From a virus: a stretch of 35,668 nt of DNA. Made by a program: the position numbers and the translations under genes. Below, piece after piece: positions 9,260 to 35,439 of the stretch. Below the pieces are notes generated by a model. The model did no database searches. It was not told where the DNA came from and saw nothing but the letters and a program-made list of their open reading frames with translations. The stretch covers positions 1-35,668 of the IMG/VR virus record IMGVR_UViG_3300045988_166040, one strand, 5' to 3'. Position 1 is the first letter of the stretch; every line of letters begins with the position of its first letter.

Positions 9260-10264
9260 TTATTTTTTAAACTTAAAAATACTCATTAGAAAATCGATAA
9301 TCTTCTCTAATAGACTTTTATTCTTGGCGATATCTTGGCTTAATTTACTAATAGACCTCATTACATCTTCATTGGTTGGTTGTGGTGCCAGTGGTTGCTC
9401 CTGTGGCTTTTCTTTGGGCTGAAGTGTCTGCTGTATCTCTGGTGTCTTTGGAGCTGGTTGTGGCTGAGGGCGTTTTTCTGGTCGAGGCGTACCGAAATCA
9501 TTAGGCGCTAACTCTCTAGTACGTTCTGCAAGCACCCAGATGGACTCATCACCCATTTTAACCAGTACGTAATTGTGTCCGCCGTCATTTTCTCCACCTA
9601 CAACGTCCATTCCACCAACTAATCGGAAGTAATCGCCTGTATTAATATCTCCATCCATTAAGTAGCCATCTCTATCTACTTTAGTTGCCACTGCTACTGG
9701 AATACCATTATCTTCCCAATCAAAGGCGTGTGTAAGGCGATTACAGCGGATTTGACGAATATCAAATACAGTAGCAACCTCATCAGCATAATACACCTCT
9801 GGTAATGCTACACGACGTTGTGGGGTTAAAATTGGCTTGCCTACATATCGATAGAATGTATATGGAGGTTGCCCTGACACGTTCCATAGCCAGTCATGGT
9901 TATCTTCAACGATACCCGCTTGATATCGACAATTAAGAATATTATCTGGTGAACTAAAAATTCCCGTATGTCCAAGAGCTCCACCAGAATTACCACGAAT
10001 ACCCCAAATAAATATATCGCCTCGCTGACATTGTGCGTCGCCATTAGCGTCAATTGGCACTTTCACCCAGCCGTTCTTTTCTAATGCATCAAATAGTGTG
10101 TCAGTGTTACCGATCCAGTAGCTCGCCGGTAATAAGCCCACCTCCTTGAGGGCGTGATACACCGAGCTTGAGCAATCATAGCTGTTTGGGCCATTGCGAT
10201 TGGCCATTGAATAACTTACTCTACCCTTTCGTGCATAGAACCATGCTAGTGCTTTTTCTATCAT
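9260..10264 (-). CDS. Endolysin: Amidase_5 (Pal-type N-acetylmuramoyl-L-alanine amidase) domain + putative binding domain + Pro-rich linker + C-terminal amphipathic helix
   Basis: ARKGRVSYSM..R.GPNSYDCSSSVYHAL...RGDIFIWG...GHTGIF closely matches the catalytic motifs of the pneumococcal phage Pal / Amidase_5 family. Confidence 0.85.
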   Translation of the reverse strand: MIEKALAWFYARKGRVSYSMANRNGPNSYDCSSSVYHALKEVGLLPASYWIGNTDTLFDALEKNGWVKVPIDANGDAQCQRGDIFIWGIRGNSGGALGHTGIFSSPDNILNCRYQAGIVEDNHDWLWNVSGQPPYTFYRYVGKPILTPQRRVALPEVYYADEVATVFDIRQIRCNRLTHAFDWEDNGIPVAVATKVDRDGYLMDGDINTGDYFRLVGGMDVVGGENDGGHNYVLVKMGDESIWVLAERTRELAPNDFGTPRPEKRPQPQPAPKTPEIQQTLQPKEKPQEQPLAPQPTNEDVMRSISKLSQDIAKNKSLLEKIIDFLMSIFKFKK

Positions 10265-10845: not shown

Positions 10846-11733
10846 TTAAACTAAACCTATGAATCTCATGCTAAACTCACTAACAGTGGAACCGCCACCA
10901 TAGTCGCGTTCGTCGCTACAAAAGGCACGTATATCAATAACATCATTCTTTTTTAAGAGCAAGTCGACAGACAAACTTGGTCGTGGCAAGTGTCGGTCGT
11001 TATCAGTACCTCTAGTGCGGGTAGATTCTTTGATTAACTTATCATTCTTAAAAATACCCATAAAAGCAGTATAATTAGAAAATAAGCCAGTCGAGGCTAT
11101 GCCTACACGTGCGTCAATATGATAAATACCATTCTTAGGTATTGTTGCTGTGAATGAGTTAGGGTCATACATATTGCCTATATTATAATCTACTGTATCA
11201 TACCTTACTTTATTCCATTTAGGATTGTTGTCGCTAGTTTTTTCTAAGGCTATCCATTTAGATGTCGTTGCCGAAAACATCGGTAGCGACGCGAAATCAA
11301 CCTTGTCTGGAGTGATAGCTTTATCCTTTATGTTCTTAGTCTCAACTATACCCTCTTTTAATTTTCCGTCTGTATCAAGGGATTCTAGTAGAGCTTGCGC
11401 CAGACGATCAGCCCACGAAGCAGAGGCACATGGTTGGACTATGTCACCGACATTACTACCATCATCTTCAGGACCTGCTAATAGCTTCAGGTTTATAATA
11501 CTGCTATTTGCTTTGTTAGCCACTCCTGTCCAATCGCGAACAGTCCCCTCAATTACGTTGCCAGCAGAGTCGGCTCTATAGGTTATGAAGTTCATTGCCG
11601 TTTCTGTACTCCAGCCGCTTAAGCCGTCAGTCATCAATGTGTCGGATCCTGTCGCGCGCGGGCTTATCACGTGCGCTACATTTGGATAAGAGCCGTCCAT
11701 TACTCGTGTAATTTTATCTTCAATACTTGCCAT
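10846..11733 (-). CDS. Tail fiber / receptor-binding protein candidate (295 aa)
   Basis: Last structural gene before the lysis cassette. The call rests on position only. Confidence 0.4.
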   Translation of the reverse strand: MASIEDKITRVMDGSYPNVAHVISPRATGSDTLMTDGLSGWSTETAMNFITYRADSAGNVIEGTVRDWTGVANKANSSIINLKLLAGPEDDGSNVGDIVQPCASASWADRLAQALLESLDTDGKLKEGIVETKNIKDKAITPDKVDFASLPMFSATTSKWIALEKTSDNNPKWNKVRYDTVDYNIGNMYDPNSFTATIPKNGIYHIDARVGIASTGLFSNYTAFMGIFKNDKLIKESTRTRGTDNDRHLPRPSLSVDLLLKKNDVIDIRAFCSDERDYGGGSTVSEFSMRFIGLV

Positions 11734-11744
11734 AATTTCCTCCT

Positions 11745-13763
11745 TTAGCTTAGATCTTTCGTACCAATATTGACGTACTCAAATACCACCCTTGACATCG
11801 CATAGCTTACTCCAGATTCGGATGATGACCACCCATACTGTACCCACTGAGCATCCTCATCAATTTCCAACTCTATATCTTCGCTTGCTGAATTAAATAT
11901 ATCTGGAACATTCTTTATTCCGCTCCACTGCACGCCTGGTGTGCTCCAATACACTCCCGGCTCACTCCAACCAGTGCGACTTGACGATGCGCCAAAATAT
12001 CGTGTTTCAGAAAAGTTCTGAAGCCCATCTTCAGTTTTAACGGTAGCATTTAACGTTATTCTTCCTTGTGGGCGCAGCAGGGTAAATACAGCTCTTAATA
12101 CTCGTGCCCAATCGCGACCGGTTTCTTCGAATCGGAGTTGTCCGCTTTGCGCGCTCGTGTTGAATAATCTTCCGTCATCTACCGTTTTGACACTCTTTGA
12201 TAGTTCAACGATCTTATCTCCTTGAACAATGAGAAAATGAGTTATACCAGAATTATCGTTATACAGCGTCATCCAGTCAGCGCGAATATTCCACGGCTTC
12301 ATCCATGCACCCTTGCGCTCAGCATCATAAACCCAAATTTGATTATTATAGTTAGCTGCGACTGGTAATGCCCAGTACACACGCCCTTCAAATGCTAATC
12401 CAACAGCTTTCTTAATAACTTTAGTATTCAGAGTACTAATCGCATCTTGAATAGTGTTAGTTATTCTCTTGGTGGATAATACGTTTTGTAATTGAGGCAG
12501 CGTACCAGTAGTCTTAAATCCATCGCGGCTTGGATATAGTAAATCGTTGTTGTAGATGACTACCGCGTCAGGACTGTCAGTGCCATCAGCTCCAGTATCT
12601 TCTTGGACCTGCCAAACAGTGATTGTATCTTCTCCATAAGTGATGTTTGTCGGTGCGATATAGAACCGCTTTCCTGTGCCGTTTGTGCCGCTGCTAAGCA
12701 CGGTAACCTTTGGGTCGCCTTTTCCGTCGCGGTACGGTCTCACTGCAAACGGCACTTCCTTGGTACCATGGCCAACTGCGGTATATCCACCGCCGTAGCC
12801 TGGTGAAAAGTCTAGTTCATGTCCGTAGTCTCCACCACGCCAAACGTAGAATGGGTTTTCTTTATCGCCCGTCATCCAAATGCGACCGTTTATCACGTCA
12901 GCGCGAGTTGTTTTTGGACCGGCTGTGTTATTGTCTTTTGGTAGCGGCACTGATACGTCTAGGCTTCTTGAGCCATTGTCTACAAGTGTCGTCTGATCCA
13001 TTGGTAAGGCACTTGCTAATCGATATAGAGTTGGATCGCCGCCGCCGTCCACACCGACGCCGCAGTAAAGATTCCATGATTTAGCCTCCTTGCTATCTGG
13101 ACGTTTAATAGTCAAGCTTTGCTTCTCGGCATTCCACATATCGCGGTCAGTTGATACCGCTTGAGATAATAATGGAGATCCTGCTGTCTCACCAACGGTA
13201 GAGTTAAAAGTAACTGCATAGAAAACCTTAAATCCATTACCTGTAAGCCCAGTATTTTTGTCTAATATCGGTACTGCTGGATCTGCTATCTTCTGGAAGG
13301 CTACGATTTTCATAGTTGGGATATCTAGGTAGCTCAGTGTATCCTCACCGTTCATAATCAGCAGATTGTTACGTATTTGCTTAAAATGTCCCCGCGCTGA
13401 TTCGTGGTATTCTTTTCCTTCGATCACCTGCCAGGCGATATCTTCGCCTTTGGCGACGCATAATTTAGTCTTGTTTTTGATTCGTTGTAAGCAAGCTAGC
13501 CAGTTGACCGAGCCGCTACTTGTCGTGCTACGGAATTCAGTTAGTTCCCCCAATATTTTGCCTAGAGGCTGAGGACCGTACTTTGCTGTACCGCAGCGAA
13601 CAGTAATAACAGAGTCTTGGTCAAGGATTAGGTTCTCTGACGACCTTAGCCCTCTTAAAGGCGACCGTCCATCGTCAAAAGCTGTCACCACTCCATTTTG
13701 CCAATCCTGCACCGCCAATCGCTGTATCTTTGGCGACTTCATATTTTTGGCAGGCTTCAGCAT
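11745..13763 (-). CDS. Large tail / baseplate-knob structural protein (672 aa)
   Basis: Position between giant protein and fiber; Gly/Thr-rich. Confidence 0.4.
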   Translation of the reverse strand: MLKPAKNMKSPKIQRLAVQDWQNGVVTAFDDGRSPLRGLRSSENLILDQDSVITVRCGTAKYGPQPLGKILGELTEFRSTTSSGSVNWLACLQRIKNKTKLCVAKGEDIAWQVIEGKEYHESARGHFKQIRNNLLIMNGEDTLSYLDIPTMKIVAFQKIADPAVPILDKNTGLTGNGFKVFYAVTFNSTVGETAGSPLLSQAVSTDRDMWNAEKQSLTIKRPDSKEAKSWNLYCGVGVDGGGDPTLYRLASALPMDQTTLVDNGSRSLDVSVPLPKDNNTAGPKTTRADVINGRIWMTGDKENPFYVWRGGDYGHELDFSPGYGGGYTAVGHGTKEVPFAVRPYRDGKGDPKVTVLSSGTNGTGKRFYIAPTNITYGEDTITVWQVQEDTGADGTDSPDAVVIYNNDLLYPSRDGFKTTGTLPQLQNVLSTKRITNTIQDAISTLNTKVIKKAVGLAFEGRVYWALPVAANYNNQIWVYDAERKGAWMKPWNIRADWMTLYNDNSGITHFLIVQGDKIVELSKSVKTVDDGRLFNTSAQSGQLRFEETGRDWARVLRAVFTLLRPQGRITLNATVKTEDGLQNFSETRYFGASSSRTGWSEPGVYWSTPGVQWSGIKNVPDIFNSASEDIELEIDEDAQWVQYGWSSSESGVSYAMSRVVFEYVNIGTKDLS

Positions 13764-14422
13764 ATATCAGACACTCCTGGGATCATATGTAGTGGTCGAT
13801 AACTTGCTTGAGCACCATTGTTTTCAATCATCTTCTGCATCAGCTGATTTGCCTCTTCAATTAGGTTGCCGTATTGATTTTGTAGAAGAATATCGTTGCG
13901 GGCGTATTCTGCAGCACACATAACAACTAGCCACATCGGATTATCTACGGGAACTGTACTGGATGCTCCTGTGAGCATAGATGCGCGTAAATACACTGGC
14001 ATTTCGATTTTTCCGCCAAGCATTGGGTCGTCGTCGGTAATCGGGTCGATAAGTAGTAACTTATTGCCGGCTATAGTGCAGTAGTTGCTGCCCTTATACA
14101 TTCCTAATTGTTCTGGTGGGACCGTGGCGTATTCTCGCACCTGATTATCTTTCCTAATCTTAATGGTGTCGCCTGGTATATCGCTTATTTTAAGCACTTC
14201 GTCTGTATCGATGTCGTATGACTGTTTAGTGGATAATATACCGATGGAATATGACGGATCGTAAAGTGATTGCCAGTCCACATTTGGTTCACTCTCCCAT
14301 TGCTGTATGTATAAATTAGCAATACCCAATATCTTCTGATATTTCTTGTCGGTCTCAGGTAGATTTCTTACTTTGCCAGTGGCTTTCAGCATGACTGCTG
14401 ATATAAGTTGTTTAGTATTCAT
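13757..14422 (-). CDS. Virion structural protein (221 aa; adaptor/tail-hub candidate)
   Basis: Overlaps the downstream gene by 7 nt. Confidence 0.35.
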   Translation of the reverse strand: MNTKQLISAVMLKATGKVRNLPETDKKYQKILGIANLYIQQWESEPNVDWQSLYDPSYSIGILSTKQSYDIDTDEVLKISDIPGDTIKIRKDNQVREYATVPPEQLGMYKGSNYCTIAGNKLLLIDPITDDDPMLGGKIEMPVYLRASMLTGASSTVPVDNPMWLVVMCAAEYARNDILLQNQYGNLIEEANQLMQKMIENNGAQASYRPLHMIPGVSDIC

Positions 14423-14446
14423 AGCGTCGTCTTCCTAAATTAAAAA

Positions 14447-14490
14447 CACGGAGCCGGCTTATTATTGCCAGACGCTCCGTGTTTTTTCGG
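14447..14490 (-). terminator. Hairpin (attenuator/terminator) just 3' of the giant gene
   Basis: acacggagc...gctccgtgt stem with a flanking T-run. Confidence 0.4.
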
Positions 14491-14533
14491 TGACGCTGTT
14501 TTCTTGTTTACTATTATAGCATAATCGTTGCAA

Positions 14534-17500
14534 CTATGCTTTTTTGACGCGTATCCTCGGACTCTTCCACTGTTTCAGTGCGGCATTTACTTGTTTTTGG
14601 GTATTCATCTTACTAATGAGATTTTGACCGATTTGGTTGATATTCATACCCTGCACAGATGTTTGATTTGCTTTTGTAGCAGACGATGAGATATTTACTG
14701 CGGCTTTTATTCCTATAGAAGCAACGCCAGAGTTAGCGGACCGGCCACCATGACCACCTCGACTACGACCCGAGCCGCTCCAACTACTGCCACCAGACGC
14801 CTCTTTAGTAATTCTATTGCCATCAACATCAAACTGAGCAGCGTTGAGAGCTTTTGCTTCCCATTTAGTAATATACCCCTCGGCACGCAGCTTATTGATG
14901 ATGCCGTTTTTGGCAAACATCTGCCCGGTAATACTCTTACGTCTTCCGTTAGTTAGTGCCTGCATCAGCTCCTCGTGGGACGATTCTTGCGCTTTCTGAC
15001 GCCAGTAATTGTCCATTAGGCTCACTTCCTTATGAGTAGTCATTGCACCATACTCGATTTGCTCCTTGGTATAACCAGACTCCCGATAGTAGCGTTCTCG
15101 TACCCAATCTGGCAAGTCCTTATGTTTGCCCATGAGTATATCTACGGCACTCTTGGCCTTATTAACCTTCTTCTCACCGTTTTCCAGTTTATTAAGGATA
15201 TCGTTAGATGAACTGAATTCTTTCTTTATGGTCGATGCACCATCAATGTTGTAGGCCTTCATCCAGTTACTATAGGCTTCGTCGCTAACACTTTGACCCT
15301 CTGCTAGAGACTTATAGTAGCTTCTCTGTACATTACCGTTCTTATTAACCAATAAGCCGTCCTGGATCTTGTATGTACCTTTTTTCAGCCCACGTTCAAA
15401 GTCTTTTATGGTTTTGCCTGTATCATCGCCAGCAGCTGTTGATGTGGAGGCTGATTTTTCGTCTGGGCGCAATGCATTTTTGCCGAACAGTAAAGCCTTG
15501 GCTTGATTCCATGCATTTCCAGAGTCTACTTCAAAGTTCGTATGCTCCTTGCCATTCTTGTCAGTATAGACATCTCCACCATCCTGTAGGACCTTTATGC
15601 CACTCATGGTTTTCTTTATTTGATTGCCTACTGGGATTAACCCTTGCAAGTTTTTCTGAGTATTCTCGCTATCACCTTGTGTGGCATAGAATCCAGCACC
15701 TAGTATATTAGCAGCAGTCTGCGCCACACCAGTAGCACCATCGAAACGACCCAAATCACTTGACTTGCCAAACATCTTCTCTCGCTCAGATTTAGGAATT
15801 AAGTTAAGCGCTGCAGATGTAACTGGATTCATCTTTGACATTTCCGATCCAATTCGAGCTATTTTCTGCCCTAATTTGTCATCTTCACCATCATCATCCG
15901 CATCATTGCTCAGCACGTCCTTAATAGCATCATACATATTAGCCAATGGTTCATTACCGGTTACTAGCTTCATCAACATATTCATCCCGTATGCAACTGC
16001 AAATGCTTCTGCGGCTCGTGTTGCCGTACCGCCTGCATCTTTAAATTGTAGTTGTCGTATTTCAGAGCCAAACCTCTTCACGTTTGCAATATTATTTTTC
16101 CAGCTCTCGTTAGTTTCATAGGTGAATTGCAAGAACATTTTGCCCAAAGTTGATTTATATACTTGCGGCATAGCACCAACGCCACGTCCACCAACAGCAC
16201 GTTCAGTTGCCTGATCGGCTGCTTTTATCAGCTGGTATCCTGTTAGCCCTTTTCTCTGAGCGCTATAGTAGTTAGCAGCCCAGTTTAGCTGTATGAATTT
16301 CTTTTCTACTAGATTCATACCCGAGACTACACTAATTTTGTCTGTAGCCTTTTGATACCTGGACCTAGTAAACTTACCGTCCGTATCTGTATAGCGTTCG
16401 CGCAGGAACGGAGACTTACGCATCGCTTCTTTAGTATCTTTCTGGAATGCCATTAAGAACGCACGACCAGTGTTGCGCAGTCCATTATCTCGGACCGTTT
16501 CTGGTAAGTTTAATGTTTGTGCTAAAGTCGACGATAAATTACCTAGGATCTTATTAGCACCATTGACACTCTCTAATCGCTGAATAGACTGGACCCACTT
16601 ATTGGTTTGGTCAATGTACGGACGATCTAATGAGCTACTTTTCCCTGCCATTTCATTGACAAAGTTCTGTACGGCAATAGTAGCCTTGCTGGATATTTTG
16701 TCACCTTTAGCTAGATTACTATCTGGATCAATGTTAGTGCCGCTCTTTTTAGCCATATCAATTGCACGCATCGATGACTCTATTTGCCTACCGCGAGCAA
16801 TAACTGGCTCCATATGAGTGTTGTACAACATAACATCTGCATAATATTCAAAAGCCTTGCGCGGATCTTTCTCATAGCTCATCATACCGCCAAATCGACG
16901 CTTCTCATTAGCATTGAACTTATGGGTTGGCTTAAAGTCGGCAGATAAACCAGCAATTGAGGCTGGTATTTCACCACGAGCTTGCCCTTCCATATCACCT
17001 CTCACGCCTGTCGGCACGGCGGCTAATAGTTTATCTACTGCTCTACCTAGAATATTACTTCGCTTTTGAATGTGTGGCATGTAGTTCTTGAGATATGGAA
17101 TCTCTTCCTTGCCATACATACGCCTAACTGAGTTAAGGTTAGATATCATAGCATCATAGTTGTTGCGCATAAATGTATCATATTCTCTGACGCGCTTAGC
17201 TGCTTGTGGACCGTACTTCTTAGAAAATGCTGCATTCATGTTCTCATCAGCACTACCTACAGGGAACTTGCCCTCTGTGTACGCACCAATATCCTCCCAA
17301 AACTTTTTACTACTTACAAAGCGAGGACGTGCTTTATCGATATGCTTAGCTAGTGCGGCATGTTTACCTAGCAGGCTCTCGATTTCATCAGCATAGTTAG
17401 CGTATGCCTCGGTCTTTTGATAGTACAAATCTTTAAGCAGTCTTTGACCTACCTTATCCTGAATATTCTTCTCAACAAGGCGATTAAAGGTGTCTGTAAT

Positions 17501-34554: not shown

Positions 34555-35439
34555 ATGATGAATAATATTTCAGATTGCTTTAGTGACTTTTTGCGAGACG
34601 AAGTCATACTATGCGACAGGAGTAGCAAAACCATAGAGCGTTACCAATGCTTTTGCAGACTACTAATCAATTTCTTAGGAAACAAACCTATCAATTCCGT
34701 ATCTCTAGAAGATACAAGAAAATGGCGTGAGATGCTCTACTCATACCAGAAGCCAGATACTGTCAGAGGCTATATAGTTTGCCTCAAGTGTTTCTTCAAA
34801 TATTGCCAGCGCAAGGGTCGCCAGCTATTATTTGACACCGAAGACATTAAGATACCTAAGCGTGAAAAACGCACCCTAGATATTCCAACCGAAGATGAAG
34901 TTGAAGAGTTTATTTCCATCTTAGCCATGAAGCGGCGCGGCTACTGTAATGCTAATAGGCTGCGTAATGTTGCCATTGGCAGACTGATCTTCTCATCAGG
35001 TATACGCGTTAGCGAAGTCTGTGCGTTAAATAAGAATTCAATCAAGAATAGGCAATTCACTGTCATTGGTAAGAGTCGTGATCCAAGAATATGCTTTATT
35101 GATTCACAGACTGAAGAGGCTATTTCAAACTACTTAAACATCCGTACAGATAGTAACCTGGCGCTATTTATTTCACATCAGACAGAACGAAGAATGACAC
35201 CAGGTAACGTCCGTAATGCGTTTGAGGCAGCTTGCGCTCGCTCTGATGGACAATTCGTTGGCATTAGACCGCACGCCCTGCGTCATAGCTTTGCTACCAA
35301 AATGTTGAATAGGCATGTAGATTTACGCTACATTGGCGACCTTATGGGACATGCTGATCTAAACACGACCAAGGTGTATACGCACTATACCAACCCGCAA
35401 TTACGAGCCATTTACGACCGCGCCCACGGCGAAATATAA
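34555..35439 (+). CDS. int: Tyrosine recombinase / integrase (XerC/D-like)
   Basis: C-terminal catalytic signature ...RPHALRHSFATKML...LMGHADLNTTKVYTHY (R-H-R-Y). GGAG RBS. Confidence 0.92.
   Translation: MMNNISDCFSDFLRDEVILCDRSSKTIERYQCFCRLLINFLGNKPINSVSLEDTRKWREMLYSYQKPDTVRGYIVCLKCFFKYCQRKGRQLLFDTEDIKIPKREKRTLDIPTEDEVEEFISILAMKRRGYCNANRLRNVAIGRLIFSSGIRVSEVCALNKNSIKNRQFTVIGKSRDPRICFIDSQTEEAISNYLNIRTDSNLALFISHQTERRMTPGNVRNAFEAACARSDGQFVGIRPHALRHSFATKMLNRHVDLRYIGDLMGHADLNTTKVYTHYTNPQLRAIYDRAHGEI

Follow-up and report, generated by a model that had tools for sequence, protein, structure and literature searches.

A giant, very probably polyvalent protein encoded by a prophage assigned to Candidatus Saccharibacteria

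Phage-type polyvalent proteins, as described by Iyer, Burroughs, Anand, de Souza and Aravind (2017, J Bacteriol; PMC5512222), feature a zincin-type HExxH domain as their hub, and their ADP-ribosyltransferases (ARTs) possess an active-site configuration of H (strand 1), Y (strand 2) and D (strand 5). The metallopeptidase was proposed by these authors to cut polyvalent proteins into functional units; in a text search of their paper, no autoprocessing or cleavage site was found to be defined for these proteins. Furthermore, transport of an ART or other toxin-like domain inside the capsid, followed by its injection alongside the DNA, is established for T4 Alt and was predicted for MuF fusions (PMC5512222). 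Prophages of oral Candidatus Saccharibacteria (TM7) are already known from the text of Liu et al. (2023, PMC10746230) and from the phage and prophage passages of Shaiber et al. (2020, PMC7739484), and no mention of a giant or polyvalent protein was found in either. In this study, a stretch of 35,668 nucleotides, the IMG/VR virus record IMGVR_UViG_3300045988_166040 (positions 1 to 35,668, referred to as the window in the following), was analyzed with respect to one gene on its minus strand, which encodes a protein of 2,620 aa. This giant protein is very probably a polyvalent protein of the phage type, a class that is itself already known.

The giant gene and its effector-type cassettes

A first-pass annotation of the window had described one uninterrupted open reading frame (ORF) of 2,620 aa with a strong ribosome-binding site and a share of 22% of the genome, and each of these features was recovered: the frame spans positions 22396 to 14534 (minus strand), and its 7,863 bases represent 22.0% of the 35,668 bases of the window. 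Two enzyme-like signatures in the middle of the protein, likewise noted at that stage, were found to correspond to an ART-PolyVal domain (aa 795-941) and to an HExxH motif (aa 1017-1021) that is invariant in 40 relatives. The gene and its central cassettes are arranged as follows:

14534..22396, minus strand: giant ORF, 2,620 aa, 292.7 kDa, 0 cysteine, uninterrupted
22407..22413, minus strand: Shine-Dalgarno sequence GAGGAGG, 10 nt 5' of the ATG of the giant gene
20069..20710, minus strand: cassette X, aa 563-776, 24 kDa, pI 4.4
19553..20056, minus strand: ART cassette, aa 781-948, within which the Pfam domain ART-PolyVal spans aa 795-941
18899..19540, minus strand: zincin-like metallopeptidase cassette, aa 953-1166 (~210 aa), with HExxH at aa 1017-1021
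18356..18886, minus strand: LPD3 cassette, aa 1171-1347, within which the Pfam domain LPD3 spans aa 1193-1307

The reading as a polyvalent protein, which had been put forward before any database search, gained support from two Pfam families scoring above their gathering thresholds, namely, ART-PolyVal (PF18760) and LPD3 (PF18798), in addition to the zincin-type HExxH cassette. At least two unrelated effector-type domains are united in one chain, and the gene resides among the late genes of a portal-terminase prophage, with TerS, TerL, portal, scaffold, major capsid protein (MCP) and endolysin encoded on the same strand. Related metagenomic entries in nr already bear the names 'PolyVal ADP-Ribosyltransferase' or 'nuclease'. 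As deduced from the sequence, the predicted effector cassettes account for approximately 30% of the protein (aa 563-1347, ~790 aa), the remainder being two conserved scaffold modules.

The ART-PolyVal match reached an E-value of 2.3e-15 and 58 bits (cut-off 31.2) over model positions 1-137 of 140, and 65 bits on the isolated tile. In homologous ART segments, H805 and Y829 were each conserved in 88 out of 88 cases and D918 in 87 out of 88, so that H805-Y829-D918 corresponds, at the residue level, to the H-Y-D configuration of a predicted ADP-ribosyltransferase with intact catalytic residues. A divergent patch of 45 codons with a 4-aa indel was observed inside this domain (aa 802-846, window positions 19859-19993, minus strand). 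It covers the catalytic His/Tyr region and holds nearly all differences of the N-terminal half from a 97%-identical relative, the adjoining cassettes being 99.7-99.8% identical, and it looks like a gene-conversion tract or a swap of a specificity region. A cassette swap at the junctions was considered as the source of the high synonymous divergence (dS) of the ART cassette and was rejected, because the divergence is confined to the 45-codon patch within the domain.

The zincin-like cassette is the most common one, being present in 162 of the 310 family proteins examined. The residues H1017, E1018, H1021, E1079, E1080 and Y1089 are invariant in the 40 relatives mentioned above and in nine divergent sequences with identities down to 19%. 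In the AlphaFold model of this domain (predicted local distance difference test, pLDDT, 80-90), a beta-hairpin is followed by the HExxH helix and a Glu-bearing helix, an arrangement that, as modelled, is the minimal zincin layout.

LPD3 was detected with an E-value of 7e-11 and 42.8 bits (cut-off 27) over model positions 5-112 of 114. Most relatives carry PBECR3 (PF18812, a predicted RNase) in its place, and the swapping of cassettes on near-identical backbones extends to relatives with PBECR3, with or without ART, and with HTH or DUF3990. Cassette X is present in 16 of the collected relatives; it has no family match, a homology search with the cassette only remained empty, and no relative was found outside this lineage. 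Its model comprises a helical hairpin and an alpha+beta domain with a weak hint of a cystatin-like fold.

The exact sequence of the giant protein was found on four contigs from three sources (JGI, Logan, and ENA), and a 97%-identical copy is present on further contigs. An assembly chimera, which the first-pass annotation had raised as a possibility, is therefore excluded by the identical protein on four independent contigs. The ratio of non-synonymous to synonymous substitution rates (dN/dS) between the giant gene and the 97%-identical copy is 0.15. The length of 2,620 aa had been called extreme for such a small genome, which is partly right; however, hundreds of relatives with lengths of 2,400-3,070 aa exist within this phage lineage, for which the length is therefore typical.

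Scaffold modules, cysteine avoidance and the junction motif

The cassettes are enclosed by two scaffold modules and separated by short recurring motifs:

20723..22396, minus strand: N-module, aa 1-558, 61 kDa, pI 9.4
21251..21295, minus strand: Gly-zipper-like segment GALGALGGGMMATAG, aa 368-382, kept in relatives
20711..20722, minus strand: junction motif 1, RYKL, aa 559-562, boundary of N-module and cassette X
20057..20068, minus strand: junction motif 2, KYKL, aa 777-780, boundary of cassette X and ART
19541..19552, minus strand: junction motif 3, RYKL, aa 949-952, boundary of ART and zincin
18887..18898, minus strand: degenerate junction motif, AYKI, aa 1167-1170, boundary of zincin and LPD3
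18344..18355, minus strand: junction motif 5, RYKL, aa 1348-1351, preceding the C-module
14537..18343, minus strand: C-module, aa 1352-2620 (~1,270 aa), 141 kDa, pI 9.3
15467..17224, minus strand: universal core of the C-module, approximately aa 1725-2310, with many near-invariant polar residues
14537..15403, minus strand: terminal sub-module, aa 2332-2620, elsewhere a stand-alone protein of ~288 aa in certain phages

A comparison of 120 close homologues revealed that the N- and C-modules are 94-98% identical in the closest relatives, whereas the central segment between them differs. The N-module consists of a conserved N-terminal peptide, Q/N/P-rich low-complexity stretches and a conserved region (aa 170-400). 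The Q/N/P-rich character noted before was evident from the first 200 aa, in which Gln and Asn contribute 34-36% and Pro up to 13%. A segment that had been described as Gly-rich and hydrophobic is indeed Gly-rich (GALGALGGGMMATAG; consensus of the relatives: ALGALGGGxMxGAGKG), but its hydrophobicity is too low for a classical transmembrane helix. Neither a signal peptide nor a transmembrane helix is evident in the giant protein.

From aa 1446 onward, the C-module comprises a beta-rich domain, a long alpha-helical body, an alpha/beta sub-module and a disordered Gly/Ser/Arg tail (pI 12). Its model, obtained with moderate confidence, features a compact helical body and a beta domain and no extended coiled coil. 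The core (query aa 1760-2310) was recovered in 144 of 149 distant cluster representatives, and the whole C-module family amounts to 1,034 clusters at 50% identity. No Pfam family, the LPD families included, and no solved structure matched the C-module, and the N-module is likewise without a Pfam family. As judged from these comparisons, the C-module defines a previously unannotated family. For the giant protein in general, PHROGs, NCBIfam and tiled Pfam scans yielded nothing beyond ART-PolyVal and LPD3, and sequence and profile searches of the PDB returned solely Q-rich low-complexity matches (SWI1, TBP, and huntingtin). Searches of cultured phages with the gene, the universal core and the head module, carried out at the DNA level (megablast and blastn) and by tblastn, revealed nothing except weak matches to the ART segment.

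The giant protein contains no cysteine in its 2,620 aa, as compared to a mean of 1.03% in the other proteins of the window, and only five cysteines were counted among 240,663 aa of 132 distant family members. Such a strong selection against cysteine fits a protein that stays unfolded or refolds outside the cytoplasm, like ejected virion proteins. The head proteins of the window are also cysteine-free (the portal has one cysteine), and the three genes downstream of the giant gene encode proteins with cysteines.

The [RK]YKL motif occurs four times in the giant protein, as compared to 0.06 occurrences expected by chance, and four copies were reached in none of 20,000 shuffles. Its positions coincide with the cassette limits that were mapped independently from homology breakpoints. 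The motifs are situated in low-confidence, predicted disordered linkers, 14-18 aa beyond the Pfam domain limits, and the degenerate AYKI copy was modelled as a beta-strand (low confidence). Since the codons differ from copy to copy, [RK]YKL is conserved at the protein level, and DNA microhomology as the source of the junctions was rejected for the same reason. The 1,270-aa C-module contains no copy of the motif, and neither do 125 of 134 distant relatives. The motif was found in 154 of 162 proteins with the HExxH domain versus six of 148 proteins lacking it (p = 0.001 among representatives at ≤50% identity). Based on these results, we propose that the D-x-[RK]-Y-K-L junctions are autoprocessing sites of the embedded zincin, and cutting at the junctions would, by calculation, release fragments of about 61, 24, 19, 24, 20 and 141 kDa.

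Prophage, host and neighboring genes

The following features define the ends of the window and the surroundings of the giant gene:

35589-35668, plus strand: complete tRNA gene (Rfam, 49 bits), the 3' part of which is the 52-bp repeat
34555-35439, plus strand: tyrosine integrase, at the right end of the window
22419..23606, minus strand: upstream partner gene, 395 aa, Q/N/G/R-rich and cysteine-free, with a GYYGGGGGGGYYGGG run
14437..14486, minus strand: intrinsic-terminator-like hairpin with U-run, directly after the stop codon of the giant gene
11745..14422, minus strand: downstream partner genes of 221 aa and 672 aa, traveling with the giant gene as a block

Positions 1-52 of the window are an exact copy of positions 35617-35668. 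From these terminal direct repeats of 52 bp, together with the tRNA gene and the integrase, it follows that the window represents a complete prophage delimited by attL and attR. The sequence, previously referred to as a phage genome, is thus phage DNA as stated, but it is integrated. The tRNA gene, which has an unusually long D-loop region, was missed by ARAGORN and found by Rfam. The prophage resides within a 255-kb contig of a human oral metagenome, on which a restriction-modification system and the housekeeping genes RarA and BipA are located beyond the tRNA. Just past the tRNA att site, the host contig (L017, positions 11095-16717) also encodes a serine recombinase, a restriction-modification pair of the HpaII type and a reverse transcriptase, and a second mobile or defence island may be located at this tRNA.

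The conserved C-terminal half was scanned against 185,579 species genomes. All 11 genomic loci were located in assemblies of Candidatus Saccharibacteria or Nanosynbacter, including a 714-kb contig, the largest one, and the assembly of a cultured strain. The prophage is accordingly assigned, as far as can be deduced from sequence, to Candidatus Saccharibacteria (TM7). One of the matches (L007) is a metagenome-assembled genome (MAG) of an oral Candidatus Saccharibacteria member, isolate P-B-F_MAG_00020, from a MAG set that we take to be that of Shaiber et al. 2020. A relative with 40% identity is encoded by Nanosynbacter sp. TM7-076 (L008).

All structural genes are encoded on the minus strand, and the giant gene shares their orientation within the late cluster, with the head genes on one side and the endolysin gene on the other. 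TerS (Sf6-type), TerL, MCP and endolysin were identified by means of PHROGs and Pfam, the portal was named by public annotation, and the scaffold was assigned from its position alone. Among cultured phages, the capsid and terminase proteins have their closest relatives in the Page-group podophages of Bacillus megaterium (~35% identity), which show the same order of head genes. The phage is temperate and probably podovirus-like. In Bacillus phage Page (L003, positions 19786-24825), a cysteine-free hypothetical protein of 1,679 aa (Page_20) ends the structural module. Homology of Page_20 to the giant protein was not supported, neither phmmer nor the family hidden Markov model (HMM) revealing a relationship; it may be a functional analogue.

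The 395-aa gene adjoins the giant gene with a gap of 22 nt, and this adjacency is kept in relatives at 28% identity, as is the synteny 395 aa / giant / 221 aa / 672 aa. In one relative (L016), the block is located between the terminase and portal genes, and a tail fibre gene directly follows the capsid gene. The neighbors that the first-pass annotation had called internal-protein-like and tail genes have no profile match: the 395-, 221- and 672-aa proteins, as well as the portal, matched nothing in PDB, Pfam, PHROGs or NCBIfam, even when copies from distant relatives were used. The public names of the flanking genes are all 'hypothetical', except for 'portal' and 'C1q-like'.

The hairpin following the giant gene is strong, is flanked by an A-run and a U-run, and has a fold z-score of -4.0 (14437-14486, minus strand), which suggests termination or attenuation ahead of the genes for the 221-, 672- and 295-aa proteins. 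The 295-aa protein (10846-11733, minus strand) shows a weak C1q/TNF-like head domain (Pfam, E 0.0014), is labelled 'Complement C1q-like protein' in nr, and is a plausible receptor-binding protein (RBP). Between the head genes and the giant block, three genes of membrane or secreted type were detected (23665-25371, minus strand), which encode G5+DUF3761, Excalibur (Ca-binding) and CAP domains and could be morons or envelope-active virion proteins; a CAP-domain gene occupies the same position in the distant relative L015. In the endolysin (9260-10264, minus strand), Amidase_5 is joined to a zoocin A target-recognition domain. Such an architecture is associated with streptococcal phages and may, in this prophage, be informative on the peptidoglycan cross-bridges of TM7.

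Evaluation of the proposed function and comparison with known systems

The following course of events is regarded as fairly probable when taken as a whole. The giant protein would be produced late, loaded into the capsid and passed, in an unfolded state, through portal and tail alongside the DNA, and this passage is proposed as the reason for the family-wide absence of cysteine. The scaffolds of the N- and C-modules would represent the ejection or DNA-piloting part, the embedded zincin would cut the chain at the D-x-[RK]-Y-K-L junctions into the fragments calculated above, and, once released, ART, LPD3 or the PBECR3 RNase of relatives would act on host targets early in infection. Delivery with the DNA would agree with both the cysteine avoidance and the position of the gene. 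Several points weigh against this course of events. Packaging, ejection, self-cleavage and targets are steps that we infer. Among nine divergent members, the HExxH domain matched no Pfam metallopeptidase (best: Tox-MPTase2, E 0.049, in one member), Foldseek against the PDB returned nothing at an E-value of 1e-3 or better, and the PDB profile search was negative; the status as a zincin therefore rests on motifs and predicted topology. Moreover, the models of ART, LPD3 and much of the N-side region are of low confidence, the flanking genes match nothing, which bears on the virion morphology, and a linker common to cassette-bearing proteins would be expected to produce the co-occurrence of motif and zincin as well.

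The protein could instead be a siphovirus tape-measure protein (TMP) with embedded effectors, the 221-, 672- and 295-aa genes then encoding Dit, Tal and the RBP, which appears improbable. The order of giant gene, ~220 aa, ~665 aa and ~300 aa (C1q-like) resembles that of TMP-Dit-Tal-RBP in siphophages of Gram-positive bacteria, the giant protein is large, mostly helical, cysteine-free and equipped with Gly-rich segments, and, with flanking genes that match nothing, a long tail is conceivable. However, no TMP, Dit, Tal, major-tail or tail-chaperone match was obtained in Pfam, PHROGs or NCBIfam for the whole protein or its tiles, and the ordinary tape-measure or tail-fibre protein that the first-pass annotation had named as its own counter-hypothesis received zero family matches. 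The 22-nt gap to the upstream gene, which encodes the 395-aa Q/N/G-rich protein without a family, leaves no room for G/GT chaperone genes, and the small connector genes are too few for a siphovirus. In addition, capsid, terminase and head-gene order are like those of podophage Page, the arrangement in L016 places the block outside a tail module, between terminase and portal genes, and the model predicts a compact body with many invariant polar residues and not an extended coiled coil. A function outside the virion, as a secreted or surface toxin of the polymorphic-toxin or lysogenic-conversion type expressed from the prophage against competitors or against the actinobacterial host cell of Saccharibacteria, is considered very unlikely. 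Exported proteins of Gram-positive-type bacteria typically exclude cysteine as well, domains of membrane or secreted type (G5/DUF3761, Excalibur, and CAP) are encoded by three neighboring genes, and the ART and RNase cassettes are toxin-like; yet no export signal or membrane helix is evident, the gene is co-oriented within the late structural cluster and syntenic with uncharacterised late genes in distant phages, and the definitions of ART-PolyVal and LPD3 are based on proteins that phages or conjugative elements deliver (PMC5512222).

With regard to the junctions, it is distinctly possible, if on the doubtful side, that [RK]YKL represents conserved linker or first-strand elements marking boundaries that tolerate exchange, and that the zincin acts on host proteins or at one site only. 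Cassette-bearing proteins would then carry both the linkers and the commonest cassette, by which their co-occurrence would be explained, and the AYKI copy was modelled, at low confidence, as a beta-strand. Furthermore, some polyvalent proteins (N4 vRNAP and ArdC) are transferred unprocessed, and the metallopeptidases (MPTases) may themselves be effectors (Iyer et al., PMC5512222). Arguing for the processing sites proposed here and against mere linkers are the retention of the motif at the protein level with different codons in each copy, its location in linkers that are predicted to be disordered and lie 14-18 aa beyond the Pfam limits, and its absence from the C-module and from most of the distant relatives (125/134). 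A more far-reaching interpretation is tentative and rather doubtful, namely, that a self-processing 'effector train' has been fused to a new class of phage ejection or DNA-pilot protein. Phages that infect Saccharibacteria and related hosts would then possess a new kind of ejectosome with the C-module as its core, and in the lineage of oral TM7, the C-module protein would have become the carrier of swappable anti-host cassettes released by the zincin at D-x-[RK]-Y-K-L. If true, a cleavage code would be defined for a polyvalent protein for the first time, and no such protein would have been described before for phages of candidate phyla radiation (CPR) bacteria.

Host takeover by phages of CPR/Patescibacteria members is almost unstudied. 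That one gene occupies 22% of a prophage, in a host with a very small chromosome, suggests that much is invested in proteins whose delivery together with the DNA is probable. An active H-Y-D ADP-ribosyltransferase is predicted, a zincin with a candidate cleavage motif would make the long-standing proposal of cutting into functional units directly testable, and the large, cysteine-free and unannotated family may represent novel ejection machinery. The cassettes swapped between near-identical backbones amount to a natural catalogue of effectors directed at Saccharibacteria, a group with some members that can now be cultivated.

Among the closest known systems are the virion-packaged giant or ejection proteins of podoviruses (N4 vRNAP, the virion RNAP subunits of crAss-like phages, and T7 gp16 / PhiM1 gp48). 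Siphovirus tape-measure proteins with enzymatic domains are comparable in size, helicity, lack of cysteine and location ahead of genes of Dit, Tal and RBP size; in contrast to them, the giant protein has no TMP matches, tail chaperones or tube gene, its fold is compact, and the block is placed between terminase and portal genes in L016. T4 Alt and the MuF / SPP1 gp7 toxin fusions share with it an ART or other toxin-like domain, whereas the giant protein has no MuF domain, no recognisable T4-type capsid-targeting sequence or prohead protease, and many more modules. The described oral Saccharibacteria prophages, as far as covered by the passages of PMC7739484 and PMC10746230 named above, agree in host group and lifestyle. 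With the polyvalent proteins of Iyer and colleagues (PMC5512222), the giant protein has in common an H-Y-D ART-PolyVal, an LPD3 and an HExxH hub in a single chain, a gene among the late genes of a portal-terminase phage, and extensive cassette mosaicism in orthologues. It differs from them in its CPR host, 'Saccharibacteria' and 'TM7' being absent from PMC5512222, in that approximately 70% of its length consists of two conserved non-effector scaffolds without a Pfam or LPD match, in a defined motif between the cassettes, and in a zincin that matches no Pfam family. New relative to the known class are the CPR host, the conserved, unannotated and cysteine-free scaffold of a very large family, the zincin-linked motif, and the mosaicism on near-identical backbones.

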